64,000 nt of DNA, from assembly GCA_041395865.1 (NCBI GenBank), contig JAWKZQ010000003.1:69394-133393 (forward strand), given 5' to 3'. Under the pieces are notes generated by a model that had not been told where the DNA came from, did no database searches, and worked only from the letters and a program-made list of their open reading frames with translations. The DNA comes from Pseudomonadales bacterium. Its GTDB lineage: Bacteria; Pseudomonadota; Gammaproteobacteria; Pseudomonadales; IMCC2047. Both the position numbers and the translations under genes were made by a program. The number at the start of each line of letters is the position of its first letter. Position 1 is the stretch's first letter. Shown piece by piece: positions 11,297 to 24,932 of the stretch.

Positions 11297-11322
11297 CTTA
11301 AGGCAGAATTAAGGCGCTTAAG
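11297..11322 (-). promoter_or_regulatory. PmrA/BasR-type box upstream of the 12-gene train
   Basis: In gene orientation the site reads CTTAAG-cgc-CTTAAT-tctgc-CTTAAG. The CTTAAT-N5-CTTAAG part fits YTTAAK-N5-YTTAAK. It lies 52-77 nt upstream of ATG 11245, with a TATCAT -10 candidate ~19 nt downstream of the box. Confidence 0.55.
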
Positions 11323-11363
11323 AAAATGCAAAATCCGTTGCAGGCAGGTCTCTGAAGTGCCGG

Positions 11364-12170
11364 TTATCCCTTGTGGCTGGGACGGGCACAGGCGCTGAGC
11401 GGCGTGATTCTGAGGCTATGCGCTGCCAGAGGCGACTTTTCAACATGGGCGTTGATGGCAAAATAGGCGGACAGGTTGTCCTCGGTCAGCACTTGCTCCG
11501 GCGATCCGTCGGCGGATACCTTGCCTTCGCTGAGCAGAATCAGCCGGTCACAGAAACGGGAGGCCATGGCGAGGTCATGAATGGCGGCAATGACCAGCTT
11601 GCCGTCATCCGAGAGCCTTTTTGCCAGATTCATCACCTCCAGTTGATGGCAAAGATCAAGACTGGCTGTGGGTTCGTCCATGAACAGGATCGAGGTTTCC
11701 TGGGCCAGTGCCCTGGCGATGAAAACGCGCTGGCGCTCGCCACCGGAAAGCTGATCGGTGCGACGGCCAGCCATTGGCAGCAGGTCGGTTTTTTCCAGTG
11801 CCTGATGAATAATACGGCTGTCCCTGTCGGTTTCGGGCCGGAAGGCGCCCAAATAGGGGGTTCTGCCCATCGCCACAATCTCCCGCACATTAAACGCGTA
11901 ACCGATGGCGGTATCCTGCGGCACGAACGCAATTCGCCGGGCGATCTCCCGCTTCGAATAGGTGCGCAGTGGCTGGTCATCCAGCGCTACCTCGCCCTGT
12001 GTCGGCTCAAGCAACCCCATCAGCAATTTGAGCAAGGTTGATTTGCCGGCACCGTTCGGGCCGATCAAGCCCACGAATTGGCCCTTGTTAAAACTCAGGG
12101 TAACATCATCGATAATCCGGCGGCGTTGGCGGGTAAGCGCCAGCTGGGTACAACTGAGCGGTGGGGTCAT
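11364..12170 (-). CDS. btuD: ABC transporter ATP-binding protein (BtuD/FecE-HmuV class)
   Basis: Walker A GPNGAGKST, signature LSGGERQRV, Walker B ILFMDEPT. Last gene of the riboswitch-controlled operon. Confidence 0.85.
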   Translation of the reverse strand: MTPPLSCTQLALTRQRRRIIDDVTLSFNKGQFVGLIGPNGAGKSTLLKLLMGLLEPTQGEVALDDQPLRTYSKREIARRIAFVPQDTAIGYAFNVREIVAMGRTPYLGAFRPETDRDSRIIHQALEKTDLLPMAGRRTDQLSGGERQRVFIARALAQETSILFMDEPTASLDLCHQLEVMNLAKRLSDDGKLVIAAIHDLAMASRFCDRLILLSEGKVSADGSPEQVLTEDNLSAYFAINAHVEKSPLAAHSLRITPLSACARPSHKG

Positions 12171-13144
12171 GAGGTTTCCTGCGTTTCCGGGCGGTCAAAA
12201 CGATGACGCCAATCCTGTAGAAGCGGGCAACCAGGCTGCATGTGGGCGGCCTGGCGTAGTGCTATTCGGGCCGCGAGCCGGCCAAGCCGGTCCGTTGGGG
12301 CTGGATAATCACGTGCCGCTGTTTTTTGGGTATAGGCGGCCAGGACCTGCTGCTTCTCCGTGACATAGTTTGATAGTCCATAGTCCGCAAGAAGGTTCTG
12401 GAAGCCCTCATGCAACTGGCGATCAAAGGGATGCGGTTCGCCCAGCAAATCGTAACAGGGGTTGGCCGGGTAGAGCATTAAACCGGCAATCAGGCCTTTG
12501 GGAATGGGGGCGTTGGCGGCATGGTGCAGGCCGCTTTTCAGTAACTTTGGCAGGACGTGGGTGTGCGGCCCCTCAGGGGATTTCTCGATGCCGATCGGCT
12601 GATACACCTCCAGGCGCGCCAGGCGGGAAATAAACACCCGGTGGGGATGGTGACGCAGGATATGCCGGAAACCGCCGCATTCGGGCGCGAGAATATTGGC
12701 GCCCTGTAAGGCACGCAAAGCGGCAATCAAACCGGCATTGTCGGTGCGTATGCAGACATCCACATAGGGGGTCCCCAGACCCAGGTCGAAAAGCACCTGC
12801 TCACGGTGCGCCGCCAGAATACTGCCTGAATCGGTCCCCAATTCGGTAATGCCGGTTCTTGCGGTCATTCGGGCGCTTGCCTCGGGTAAACAGAAGGCAA
12901 CGGCCTGCCCCCAGTGATCGCGATGCCGGCGGCTGGTTTCATAGGCCAGCGGTGTGCAGTCCTCAAGGTGATCCACCCGGATGCCGCCGCGTGCGGTGGC
13001 AATGCTTAACTGCGGGCCGGGGGCAATCAGGCGCGTTTCGTTTTCATCCTGAGAAAATTCGCCCAATGCGCCAAAGGCGCCCAGGCTCCAGCTACTTTGG
13101 CAGTTGTCGAGGTGCTCGAGAATCAGCGATTTTGTCATCGTCAT
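12167..13144 (-). CDS. hypothetical protein embedded in the B12 uptake operon
   Basis: 325-aa ORF with no signal peptide, TM segment or P-loop that I can see. It starts 7 nt after the btuC stop and makes a 4-nt ATGA overlap with the btuD start. I do not recognise the family. Confidence 0.7.
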   Translation of the reverse strand: MTMTKSLILEHLDNCQSSWSLGAFGALGEFSQDENETRLIAPGPQLSIATARGGIRVDHLEDCTPLAYETSRRHRDHWGQAVAFCLPEASARMTARTGITELGTDSGSILAAHREQVLFDLGLGTPYVDVCIRTDNAGLIAALRALQGANILAPECGGFRHILRHHPHRVFISRLARLEVYQPIGIEKSPEGPHTHVLPKLLKSGLHHAANAPIPKGLIAGLMLYPANPCYDLLGEPHPFDRQLHEGFQNLLADYGLSNYVTEKQQVLAAYTQKTAARDYPAPTDRLGRLAARIALRQAAHMQPGCPLLQDWRHRFDRPETQETS

Positions 13145-13151
13145 AACCCTG

Positions 13152-22701: not shown

Positions 22702-22821
22702 CTGTTATTCAAGCAGGGCCGGCTCAAAGCGGGCCGGGTTGCCCCGTAAACCTCGATTGGTTTGTTTGACTGTCGTTTCTGTTAAACGTGGCGGCTGCCC
22801 AGGTTTGCTGCTGCCTGCCGC

Positions 22822-24849
22822 TCATTGCTTACCGATAACCTCCTCGGACTTTTCGATGTCATCGATCGCAGCCGTTTGCAGGTTAGGGGTGTCCAGCCTG
22901 TACAGTTGTTGTTCGTAGGTCATGGATGACCAGCTGGCATGAGCCAGCGCTTTTTCAGGCAGTTCTTTATTGTTTGAACCGGTGGGTATCAGCTGACTCT
23001 CCCGATACGCGAACTCTGCAATAGGTAGATCCTTCCTGAGTATTGCCAGGTGGCCGCCTTCCATATAAGCCTGGGTTGCGTTGTATTGCATGATGGCGCG
23101 TCCGGCCTGGGCCTGCATGCCGGGCAGGGTCAGGTCGTGACCGATCATGGGATGAACCGAAGAGATGCCAATCAGGGAAAGCAGGGTGGGGGGCAGGTCA
23201 ATTTGGCTTGCCACCGGTTTGAATACCCCAGGCTCAATGGTTCCCCCCATAATCAGGCCGGGAATATGGAAATACTCGACAGGCACCAGTTCGGCACCGC
23301 GCACCCGCGAATTGTGATCGGCCACGATAATAAACACGGTGTTGTCCCAATAGTTCGATTGCCGTGCTTTCTCAATAAATTGTCCCAGCGCGTAGTCGGC
23401 ATATTTGACGGCGTTGTTGACCGTATGCTTCTCCGAGCCCTCCAGTTCGATACGATTATCCGGGAATTCGTAGGGCGAGTGATTGGACGAACTGAACACT
23501 AGACTGAAAAAAGGACGGTCGCCTGATTGGCTGAACTCTTCATGGGCGCGGTTGAACAGGTCCTCGTCGGAGACACCCCAGGAACCGGTGAAAACCGGGT
23601 TCACGTAGTCGTCCTGGTCGATTACTGAATCAAAGCCGTTGTTTACGAAGAAGCGTCCCATGTTATCGAACTGGGCTTCGCCACCGTAGATAAAACTCGT
23701 CCGGTAGCCTTGCTGACCCAGAAGCTGGGCGATGGTAAAAAAGTTTTTTTGCGATTTACCAAGTTTAACCACACTGCGTGCGGCGGTTGGCGTAAAACCG
23801 GTGATAACGGCTTCGATGCCGCGCACCGAGCGCGTGCCGGTGGCGTAAAGGTTTTCAAACCAAAGGCCTTCGCTGGCCAGGCGGTCGAGGTTGGGCGTCA
23901 GATCTAAACCACCCAGTGAGCCGACAAATTCAGCGCCCAGGCTTTCCTCAAGGATAATAACCAGGTTGAGTGGCCGGGGGTAGGTCCGTGTTGCCTGTTG
24001 GTGGTGAAGTGTGGGCAGCTGGGCCGAGACAAAATCATCGGCATGCACTTTCATTTGGCTGCGCACCCGCTCAATGGTTTCCTCCGGCGCCATCGCGCCA
24101 TAGTTCATGCCCCCTTCGGGTTCGTGGCGCATTTCATACATGGCGTACAGGGCGGTGTAGGCCGAATTCAACGCCAGGTCGTTGGCCATTGGGTCGGTGG
24201 ACAGGGCCACTGTGCTGGGGTTTACCGGGCGGTGATCCAGGGTGGAGCGAATCGCGCCGGCACAGGCCAGCAGTAAGAATGGCGTGATAACCAGCGCGCT
24301 CAATAGGGAAACCGGGTGGAGGTTGGCGGTTAACCCTTTTAACTTGGTACTCACCTGCCAGGCGATAAAAGCACACAACAGAATGGCCAGCGTGAGCGGT
24401 AGTTTCTGTGTTGCCAGCAGGGTCGAGCCGACTTCAATCGGATGATTCAGGTATTCGACAAACAGAATGTTGGGGCGGGCATCGAACTGATTAATAAAGG
24501 AGGGTGTGCTGCACTCCATGAAGGTCAGCAGAACAGCCACCGTGGGTAAATAAAACGTTAAAAAAACCTTCCAAACTTTCAATAAGGGCCGACTGGTTGC
24601 AAGCGGGAGTAACAGCAGGGTTGGGAAAAGCATCACGATGCCGACCATGACCATGTCGAAACGCAGTCCCTGAATAAAGATGTTTGCCAGCATGTCTGCG
24701 TCGATGACCCGTTGCCATTGCCAGGCAACCAGTGCCAGGCGTGACAGGGTTAGCAGGCCGAGCATAAAGAGGCAAAAAAGCGCAAGTGGTTTAAGGCAGG
24801 TCCATAGGCTGGATCTGCGGGACTGAATTGGCTGGTCTTGTCGAGTCAA
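22822..24849 (-). CDS. LTA-synthase/sulfatase-family membrane transferase (OpgB/phosphoglycerol-transferase-like)
   Basis: An N-terminal ~5-TM domain plus an extracytoplasmic sulfatase domain (NLVIILEESLGAEF, YATGTRSVRGIEAVITG, ADHN). TTG start at 24849. Confidence 0.8.
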   Translation of the reverse strand: MTRQDQPIQSRRSSLWTCLKPLALFCLFMLGLLTLSRLALVAWQWQRVIDADMLANIFIQGLRFDMVMVGIVMLFPTLLLLPLATSRPLLKVWKVFLTFYLPTVAVLLTFMECSTPSFINQFDARPNILFVEYLNHPIEVGSTLLATQKLPLTLAILLCAFIAWQVSTKLKGLTANLHPVSLLSALVITPFLLLACAGAIRSTLDHRPVNPSTVALSTDPMANDLALNSAYTALYAMYEMRHEPEGGMNYGAMAPEETIERVRSQMKVHADDFVSAQLPTLHHQQATRTYPRPLNLVIILEESLGAEFVGSLGGLDLTPNLDRLASEGLWFENLYATGTRSVRGIEAVITGFTPTAARSVVKLGKSQKNFFTIAQLLGQQGYRTSFIYGGEAQFDNMGRFFVNNGFDSVIDQDDYVNPVFTGSWGVSDEDLFNRAHEEFSQSGDRPFFSLVFSSSNHSPYEFPDNRIELEGSEKHTVNNAVKYADYALGQFIEKARQSNYWDNTVFIIVADHNSRVRGAELVPVEYFHIPGLIMGGTIEPGVFKPVASQIDLPPTLLSLIGISSVHPMIGHDLTLPGMQAQAGRAIMQYNATQAYMEGGHLAILRKDLPIAEFAYRESQLIPTGSNNKELPEKALAHASWSSMTYEQQLYRLDTPNLQTAAIDDIEKSEEVIGKQ

Positions 24850-24904
24850 GGCTTTTTCCGGAGGTTTGGGTTAATGGCAACCCATATAAGCTTACAGACC
24901 AAAC

Positions 24905-24932
24905 CTTAAGGGATTCTTAACAGCGTATTAAG
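24905..24932. promoter_or_regulatory. triple PmrA/BasR-type half-site array in a divergent promoter region
   Basis: The plus strand reads CTTAAG-ggatt-CTTAAC-agcgt-ATTAAG: three hexamers at 11-bp periodicity. In minus orientation it reads CTTAAT-N5-GTTAAG-N5-CTTAAG, followed 16 nt later by TATATG. It lies 56-83 nt upstream of TTG 24849. Confidence 0.55.

Follow-up and report, generated by a model that had tools for sequence, protein, structure and literature searches.

The window analysed here, 64,000 nucleotides of contig JAWKZQ010000003.1 from a Pseudomonadales bacterium (positions 69,394 to 133,393), encodes a two-component system that probably controls neighbouring genes for phosphoethanolamine modification of lipopolysaccharide (LPS) together with its own operon. 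Three promoters in the window carry a box of two TTAAG-type hexamers repeated at a distance of 11 bp, and it is likely that the local response regulator (4751..5410, minus strand), an OmpR/PhoB-family protein of the PmrA/QseB/BqsR subgroup and the proposed box binder, acts on these boxes as activator of three sigma-70 promoters. Established by computation are the motif with its spacing and conservation, the association of box and regulator across loci, and the conserved recognition residues. A preliminary description of the same DNA had proposed that the boxes tie the local two-component system to eptA, cptA, dgkA, a sulfatase-family transferase and the system's own operon, and this core proposal is supported, at the level of sequence, by conservation in related genomes, by the scarcity of the motif in coding DNA and by the DNA-contacting residues of the regulator.

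Re-reading of the sequence places the three repeat sites where they had been described, i.e., at 11297-11322 (site 1; CTTAAGgcagaATTAAGgcgCTTAAG on the plus strand), 19836-19852 (site 2; CTTAAGgcagcCTTAAG) and 24905-24932 (site 3; CTTAAGggattCTTAACagcgtATTAAG). On the minus strand, which is that of the genes, site 1 reads CTTAAG-cgc-CTTAAT-tctgc-CTTAAG, and its box, P1, is CTTAAT-tctgc-CTTAAG (11297..11313, minus strand; 34.6 bits with the weight matrix described below), located 5' of the operon that runs from the T_hemolysin gene to unk1474 and encodes the regulator and the kinase. The extra CTTAAG hexamer (11317..11322, strand unassigned) lies 3 bp upstream of P1 and outside the 11-bp phase, is not kept in the orthologous promoters of the related loci L034, L006 and L081-L084 (related loci are cited by their L numbers), and is probably incidental or auxiliary. 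Site 2, CTTAAG-gcagc-CTTAAG on the plus strand, provides box P2, CTTAAG-gctgc-CTTAAG (19836..19852, minus strand; 32.9 bits), 5' of cptA-dgkA. Site 3, CTTAAG-ggatt-CTTAAC-agcgt-ATTAAG on the plus strand, provides box P3, GTTAAG-aatcc-CTTAAG (24905..24921, minus strand; 34.5 bits), 5' of the gene for an LtaS/OpgB-like sulfatase-family transferase, as well as a distal third half-site, CTTAAT (24927..24932, minus strand), which is in 11-bp phase and has a box-only score of 16.3. Triple half-sites of this kind are also present in L005, L044 and L135, and the third half-site is not kept in L034. The 11-bp periodicity initially described for the repeats is correct for the paired hexamers of all three sites, but not for the third hexamer of site 1 with its n3 spacing. 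Likewise, the repeat pairs are present as described, but the formula YTTAAK for both halves is too strict: the upstream half-site need not begin with Y, as site 3 shows with its operative pair GTTAAG-N5-CTTAAG. The general form of the box in the three sites is NTTAAG-N5-CTTAAK.

The strict pattern YTTAAK-N5-YTTAAK yields 3 strand-hits at 2 loci in the 64 kb window against 0.11 expected, and 12 matches against 3.27 expected are found when up to one mismatch is allowed; neither count was reached in any of the shuffled windows (0/100 in both cases). The lone hexamer CTTAAG is not over-represented in the window (16 vs 12.25 expected), so that the signal resides in the paired arrangement, and the other CTTAAG pairs of the window, at 55996/56017 and 62388/62435, are off-pattern and fall within or at coding sequence. 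A weight matrix of 35 columns was derived from 68 training sites, all of them from other genomes with the window excluded; when both strands of the 64 kb were scanned with this matrix, the three sites scored 32.9-34.6 bits and the next best match 13.2 bits. The three repeats are sites far beyond chance, which bears out the preliminary judgement that they are not coincidental: shuffles, matrix gap and conservation agree, and a background frequency has now been computed. The opposite view, that the repeats reflect chance or the sequence bias of AT-rich intergenic DNA and of the palindromic CTTAAG and have no regulatory role, could draw on the unremarkable frequency of the lone hexamer and on the higher AT content of intergenic compared with coding DNA. 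It is, however, refuted computationally by the shuffles and by the permutation controls, the 82:1 non-coding split, the cross-genus positional conservation and the coupled -10 element presented below, and its probability is negligible.

When sites from the window and from related loci are aligned with the box as anchor (n=35), a TAnnnT element starts exactly 10 nt past the promoter-proximal hexamer in 29 of the 35, compared with a background of 5.5% at three offsets in non-coding DNA (binomial P ~3e-31). In the window the predicted -10 elements are TAGTCT for P1 (11281..11286), TACCTT for P2 (19820..19825) and TAAGCT for P3 (24889..24894), all on the minus strand and each exactly 10 nt downstream of its box; with the operon ATG at 11245, the leader transcribed from P1 is predicted to be ~29 nt long. 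If TAnnnT is taken as the -10 element at -12 to -7, the computed position of the box is ~-39 to -23, and the fixed distance of 10 nt thus indicates that the box stands in for the -35 element. None of the three gaps yielded a -35-containing promoter when scanned for the sigma-70 consensus, which is consistent with activator-dependent promoters that lack this element. Replacement of the -35 element by the box is also seen at the target promoters of PmrA, and the reference positions are the PhoB site of pstS at -41 to -25 and the Klebsiella pbgP box four base pairs downstream of the PhoB site (PMC10570014). The box position deduced here falls within 2 bp of both the pbgP box and the pstS PhoB site, and is ~2 bp upstream of the former. 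The logo of 73 unique sites reads (C/G)TTAAG-nyT-nc-CTTAAG-nWW-N7-TAnnnT.

The same geometry bears on the sign of regulation. A regulator that binds the boxes mainly as a repressor, or as a dual regulator, would have a precedent in BqsR, which activates or represses depending on the position of the box (PMC13522522), and the boxes of the window do overlap the -35 region. There is, however, no recognisable -35 hexamer at the three promoters, and the fixed gap of 10 nt to the -10 element is the layout of PmrA- and PhoB-activated promoters (PMC10570014), whereas strict spacing is not needed by a repressor. We infer activation rather than repression, and consider a mainly repressive or dual role very unlikely.

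Because the -10 element is coupled to the box, the orientation is fixed as well, and all three sites serve genes on the minus strand. This has a consequence for site 3, which lies between the transferase gene and a divergent gene for an OprC-like TonB-dependent copper receptor (TIGR01778, 534 bits; within 25042-31953, plus strand). In the plus orientation toward the receptor, no -10 element is present at the required spacing in the window, nor in L034, L081 or L084, which have the same divergent pair; the receptor was therefore rejected as a target, and the preliminary suggestion that it might possibly belong to the regulon is not supported.

To place the sites in a comparative frame, 80 loci around cptA homologues, 64 metagenomic loci around homologues of the first gene of the operon and 2 loci of cultured strains were compared, 2.16 Mb in total; in the metagenome scan a single T_hemolysin query matched nothing, and the loci were retrieved with an alignment as query. 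The window belongs to an uncultured marine gammaproteobacterium close to the Porticoccaceae (Cellvibrionales), and the closest CptA relatives are 70-72% identical to the window protein. Of the 35 closest cptA loci, about 25 have a box 64-75 bp before the cptA start. Boxed cptA genes occur in Porticoccaceae, Alcanivorax, Cycloclasticus, metagenome-assembled genomes labelled Methylococcales and others, and no box was found upstream of cptA of Pseudomonas or Azotobacter among the cptA loci examined. In the closest relative, L034, the gene order is rearranged, and boxes precede the operon, lptF-eptA, cptA and the LtaS-like gene; in L081 and L084 they precede the LtaS-like gene and the operon. Boxes orthologous to P1 are present in L034, L006, L081-L144, L145 and L146, and boxes orthologous to P3 in L034 (14381), L081 (2313), L084 (7761) and L047 (935). 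The cultured Zhongshania (L145) and Microbulbifer (L146) are thus among the carriers.

The composite pattern of box, 10 nt and TAnnnT has 83 matches in the 2.16 Mb, 82 of them non-coding, and the sole match scored as coding, in L110, falls in a mis-called open reading frame (ORF) upstream of the operon, i.e., before the T_hemolysin gene. Nearly all composite matches precede cptA, the operon, the sulfatase-family transferase or the methyltransferase; the few others stand before a multihaem cytochrome, an FMO-like oxidoreductase and a second type of regulator. Perfect boxes are distributed 18 to 1 between non-coding and coding DNA, the former making up 12% of the total. Permutations of the core with the same composition give 5-16 non-coding matches compared with 122 for TTAA, and AT-richness is therefore not the explanation. 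Both comparative checks that had been proposed for the motif, its footprint in orthologous promoters and its density in coding DNA, come out in its favour: it is found at a fixed position in orthologous promoters even where the gene order is rearranged, and it is almost absent from coding DNA.

The regulator itself carries the features expected of a protein that reads such a box, and the DNA-binding-domain peptide quoted for it in the preliminary description is present in the window protein. It aligns without gaps to Klebsiella PmrA over residues 1-215, and its nearest solved structures are those of Klebsiella PmrA, bound to DNA (4S04/4S05) and to RNA polymerase (8JO2); for the DNA-binding domain, Klebsiella PmrA ranks first among solved structures with 70.4 bits and CarR (BqsR) second with 59.5 bits. 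Klebsiella PmrA contacts DNA through K153, R171, T187, N188, E191, V192, H193, H195, R198, R210 and G211 (PMC3973317), with H193 and H195 as proposed specificity determinants, and N188 reads the AA step (PMC10570014). Nine of these 11 residues are identical in the window regulator, the two differences, K153R and T187S, are conservative, and D149 is identical too. The recognition helix, S-N-[AT]-[LVI]-[ED]-V-H-[IV]-H-[HN]-L-R-K-K, is kept in operon-borne orthologues down to 46% identity, with only rare substitutions of the two specificity-determining histidines. A second regulator type (32-37% identity), found near box-less operons, has a different recognition helix.

The association extends to gene content. 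The box precedes the operon in 24 of 24 non-duplicate loci in which the operon includes the regulator, and in 1 of 6 loci without the regulator, the latter set being limited to the 6 loci long enough to show its absence. No other OmpR-family regulator is encoded in the window. From helix, contacts and co-occurrence we infer binding by this regulator.

Several points weigh against assigning the boxes to the local system. The regulator ranks PmrA first in NCBIfam (NF007928), but its 240.8 bits are below the equivalog cut-off of 330, and QseB, in second place with 216 bits, is likewise below its cut-off of 345. The periplasmic segment of the kinase contains no ExxE, no RExxE and none of the acidic motifs of QseC. 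In most of the boxed cptA loci no regulator of this kind lies within 10 kb, and the pair L139/L140 has a box and no regulator in reach. The co-occurrence count ignores kinship, and several sites come from close relatives (e.g., L015, L018, L019, L020); the coding mask behind the 82:1 split is a heuristic ORF call. Finally, since regulators of at least three paralogous types use this box, a different paralogue encoded elsewhere in the genome could bind it.

The last point amounts to an explanation of its own, in which the sites are real class-II activator sites that are bound by a PmrA/QseB/BqsR-type paralogue from outside the window, while the local regulator has other or shared targets. Besides the shared use of the box by PmrA, QseB and BqsR (PMC5053249, PMC13522522, PMC3973317), the cross-regulation of such systems in E. 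coli (PMC5053249) and the boxed loci without a linked regulator mentioned above are in line with it. Against it stand the boxes before all operons that carry the regulator and their lack in 5 of the 6 that do not, the conservation of the recognition helix along with the box, and the position of the local protein as sole OmpR-family regulator of the window. We judge binding by an outside paralogue to be unlikely, if the most serious of the alternatives to the assignment of the boxes to the local regulator.

The kinase (3420..4754, minus strand) has QseC-type architecture, with two transmembrane helices around a periplasmic 2CSK_N domain of ~115 residues. Among NCBIfam models it matches QseC best, over residues 4-418 (204 bits, below the cut-off of 475). 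The stretch equivalent to the QseC acidic motif reads AER.D.R, and conservation among the orthologues is limited to generic 2CSK_N positions. The periplasmic domain also has a His-rich patch, which was considered as a metal site and rejected, as it is not conserved among the orthologues.

With respect to the targets, the 12-gene operon downstream of P1 (1474..11245, minus strand) includes the regulator and the kinase and has only overlaps or short gaps between its genes, and site 1 therefore plausibly drives both of them. Its placement upstream of this 12-gene train, already recognised in the preliminary description, is in accord with box, -10 element and orientation. By analogy with pmrCAB and ygiW-qseBC, an operon that encodes regulator and kinase under its own box plausibly represents positive autoregulation. 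P2 precedes the unit of cptA (18042-19787, minus strand; 725.6 bits against a cut-off of 404 for the NCBIfam CptA subfamily) and, after a gap of 12 bp, dgkA (17640-18029, minus strand), together 17640..19787; the cptA-dgkA linkage is also present in L034 and L027. The first gene after P3 encodes the LtaS/OpgB-like sulfatase-family membrane transferase (22822-24849, minus strand), which is followed after 120 bp by lptF (21598-22701, minus strand) and by a gene for an eptA-type lipid A phosphoethanolamine transferase (19932-21590, minus strand; NF028537, 644 bits against a cut-off of 500). The 120-bp gap between the transferase gene and lptF contains no box, no predicted promoter and no predicted terminator, so that the simplest reading would have lptF-eptA co-transcribed by read-through from site 3; indirect support is provided by L034, where lptF-eptA has its own perfect box. 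The earlier link of eptA and lptF to the motif would thus hold by way of the presumed read-through, as neither has a box of its own in the window. The targets overlap the classical PmrA regulon in eptA and cptA, and the arn operon is absent from the window.

The lptF gene directly upstream of eptA is a lone copy without lptG, and this pairing is kept in L034 (7051-8151); the protein may be an accessory LptF for modified LPS.

Taken as a circuit, the kinase (3420-4754) would sense a periplasmic cue, probably metal-related in view of family precedent and operon content, and phosphorylate the regulator. The phosphorylated dimer, with Asp51 as phospho-acceptor, would then bind the tandem TTAAG-type hexamers, 11 bp apart and head-to-tail, and recruit RNA polymerase to the three promoters, with the box at ~-39 to -23 replacing the -35 element. 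The first output would be the system's own 12-gene operon, i.e., positive autoregulation; the second, cptA-dgkA, would place phosphoethanolamine on the LPS core and recycle the diacylglycerol by-product; and the third would comprise the LtaS/OpgB-like transferase and, by read-through, lptF and eptA, leading to phosphoethanolamine on lipid A.

The operon that houses the system deserves separate consideration. From P1 the order on the minus strand is T_hemolysin (10505-11245), AMP-dependent ligase, methyltransferase, InaA/WaaP-like kinase, Haem_oxygenas_2-like protein, SDR, TPR protein, regulator (4751-5410), sensor kinase (3420-4754), cupredoxin, FTR1 permease and unk1474 (1474-2190). A 10-gene core, T_hemolysin, ligase, haem-oxygenase-like protein, SDR, TPR protein, regulator, kinase, cupredoxin, FTR1 and unk1474, is kept in this order in more than 30 metagenomic contigs, with the first gene down to ~30-45% identity, and is also present in the cultured Zhongshania aliphaticivorans and Microbulbifer sp. 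CP116898.1. The methyltransferase and InaA-like kinase genes (7570-8999, minus strand) are inserted within the operon only in the window and in L084. Elsewhere the InaA-like kinase gene is found at the end of the operon, or the methyltransferase gene with a box of its own (L091, L093, L095, L102, L136; L132 at 18036; L005 at 16448). The insertion in the window parallels the linkage of these genes to colRS in Pseudomonas.

The AlphaFold model of the T_hemolysin protein (predicted local distance difference test, pLDDT, 87) shows a GNAT-like fold, and the solved structures that it matches best are those of LuxI-type acyl-homoserine-lactone synthases and of FeeM, an N-acyl amino acid synthase (TM 0.4-0.6, template modelling scores). 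This suggests that the 'thermostable hemolysin' family member is not a toxin but an N-acyltransferase. In Zhongshania a single protein of 731 residues (L145 10693-12888) combines the AMP ligase with the haem-oxygenase-like protein, and on this Rosetta-stone evidence the two would act together. The product of unk1474 (238 residues) has no family match; it starts with a signal peptide, carries EYEF(Y) at its C-terminus and shows ~40 invariant alignment columns in which glutamate is frequent, features that suggest a small outer-membrane beta-barrel, and such a barrel, the cupredoxin and FTR1 would form a complete metal import route. A literature search found no paper on this operon.

These properties allow a wider, more tentative proposal, which we regard as possible though doubtful: the two-component system may be the core of a self-activating 10-gene operon of marine Cellvibrionales and some Xanthomonadales-like lineages that is metal-responsive, has an undescribed small molecule or lipid as its main output, and includes LPS phosphoethanolamine modification as one arm. 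A first module, consisting of the LuxI/FeeM-like N-acyltransferase, an acyl-adenylate or acyl-CoA ligase, a haem-oxygenase-like di-iron oxidase and the SDR, would then make an N-acyl or amide compound that serves as signal or envelope lipid, and a second module would import metal across three compartments by means of the Glu-rich outer-membrane barrel, the periplasmic cupredoxin and the FTR1 permease.

Several further features of the window and of the related loci were recorded. The copper receptor gene is followed by pqiA, pqiB, pqiC-like and LssY-like genes (25042-31953, plus strand), and the divergent pair of receptor and LtaS-like gene is kept in L034, L081 and L084, though the box does not serve the receptor. 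Between box promoters 1 and 2 lies an unrelated, box-free B12 uptake operon (11364-17162, minus strand), preceded by its own cobalamin riboswitch (17369-17548, minus strand; 124 bits); its genes encode a TonB receptor of btuB type, a periplasmic binding protein, a FecCD permease, a DUF6925 protein and an ABC ATPase. In Zhongshania, a further box (L145 9836-9868, minus strand) precedes a redoxin-DUF4266-DUF3570-DsbD-ApbE operon, and in Microbulbifer further boxes (L146 8522-8554, minus strand, and 8608-8640, plus strand) precede a DUF3413-sulfatase/GtrA/GT2/ArnT-like operon and a carbonic anhydrase gene. In L032, a perfect box with a -10 element (42-74, plus strand) stands before the gene of a regulator with a different helix type (36% identity), so that two-component systems of this genome may be linked in a regulatory cascade.

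The box-and-regulon logic of PmrA, QseB and BqsR is central to polymyxin and colistin resistance in pathogens. It is extended here to marine bacteria that are Porticoccaceae-like and uncultured, and box, class-II position and eptA/cptA targets all appear to be ancient and portable. A role as reservoirs of mcr-like genes is under discussion for marine phosphoethanolamine transferases, and insight into how these enzymes are natively regulated helps to judge the conditions of their expression. The promoter grammar of box, 10 nt and TAnnnT is testable and transferable, and picks regulon members with almost no false positives. The circuit is of a familiar kind, located here in an unstudied lineage and an unusual operon; the widely conserved host operon is the more original lead, and the culturable carriers Microbulbifer and Zhongshania make experiments feasible.

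Among known systems, PmrA/PmrB (BasR/BasS) of Salmonella, E. coli and Klebsiella offers the most obvious comparison. The PmrA regulon includes eptA (pmrC) and cptA, and the system is autoregulated; its hallmarks also include polymyxin resistance and a response to Fe3+, Al3+ or mild acid. The window system is like it in the type and spacer of the box, in the predicted eptA and cptA targets, in the presumed autoregulation and in the contact residues of the regulator, the PmrA box being composed of two TTAA(G/T) hexamers with a 5-bp spacer that replace the -35 element (PMC3973317, PMC10570014). Unlike in PmrAB, the genes of the window are not arranged in a pmrCAB operon but lie amid an operon of 10-12 genes, and whereas PmrB has a short periplasmic loop with ExxE, the window kinase has a large, ExxE-free 2CSK_N domain. 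The label 'PmrAB-like' used in the preliminary description is therefore appropriate for box, contact residues and targets, but too narrow in view of the low equivalog scores, the kinase without the PmrB ExxE and a box that is common to QseB and BqsR.

The BqsR regulon comprises metal transport and LPS modification genes, and the presence of FTR1 and cupredoxin genes in the window operon is reminiscent of the linkage of BqsR/BqsS to iron transport. BqsS is defined by the Fe2+ motif RExxE and encoded in the operon bqsPQRST; unlike BqsS, the window kinase lacks RExxE, and the bqsPQRST layout is not seen at the window locus. The box of P. aeruginosa BqsR/CarR, TTAAG-N6-TTAAG (PMC13522522), has the same core and phase as that of the window, a feature that does not discriminate BqsR from PmrA or QseB. 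At position 195 of the recognition helix, BqsR has N, while both the window regulator and PmrA have H.

QseB/QseC (FirR/FirS) is known from Enterobacteriaceae and Pasteurellaceae, and members from the latter respond to iron or zinc. The window kinase is like QseC in its architecture and in its near full-length best match. The CTTAA-N6-CTTAA repeat bound by QseB of Aggregatibacter flanks the -35 element of the operon that encodes QseB, and signal recognition by QseC is defined by the acidic motifs EDD, EDDDE and EYRDD (PMC5053249). In contrast to QseBC, the equivalog cut-offs are not reached, the acidic motifs are absent and the window operon has no ygiW-type gene. Since QseB and BqsR/CarR use the same box, the motif marks the PmrA/QseB/BqsR subgroup and not PmrA alone.

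ColR/ColS (RaxR/RaxH), the metal-responsive regulator of lipid A remodelling in Pseudomonas and Xanthomonas, does the same physiological job. A ColRS-type circuit in the window would account for the parallel gene content: Pseudomonas colRS is linked to a methyltransferase and an InaA-like LPS kinase gene, and eptA and dgkA belong to the ColR regulon (PMC2689224, PMC8306577). However, the ColR consensus, (T/C)(T/C)NA(C/G)NN(T/C)TTTTT(C/G)AC (PMC2689224), bears no relation to the box and does not occur in the three promoters, its 5 matches in the window (2.6 expected) represent no enrichment and all fall within ORF coordinates, the recognition helix differs from that of ColR and is PmrA-like, and the kinase has no ExxE. 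A ColRS identity, highly improbable on these grounds, was rejected for lack of the consensus at the three promoters, and ColRS is a functional analogue, not a family member. In terms of its sequence features, the window system is a PmrA/QseB/BqsR-type circuit in an unstudied marine lineage, embedded in an undescribed and widely conserved operon.

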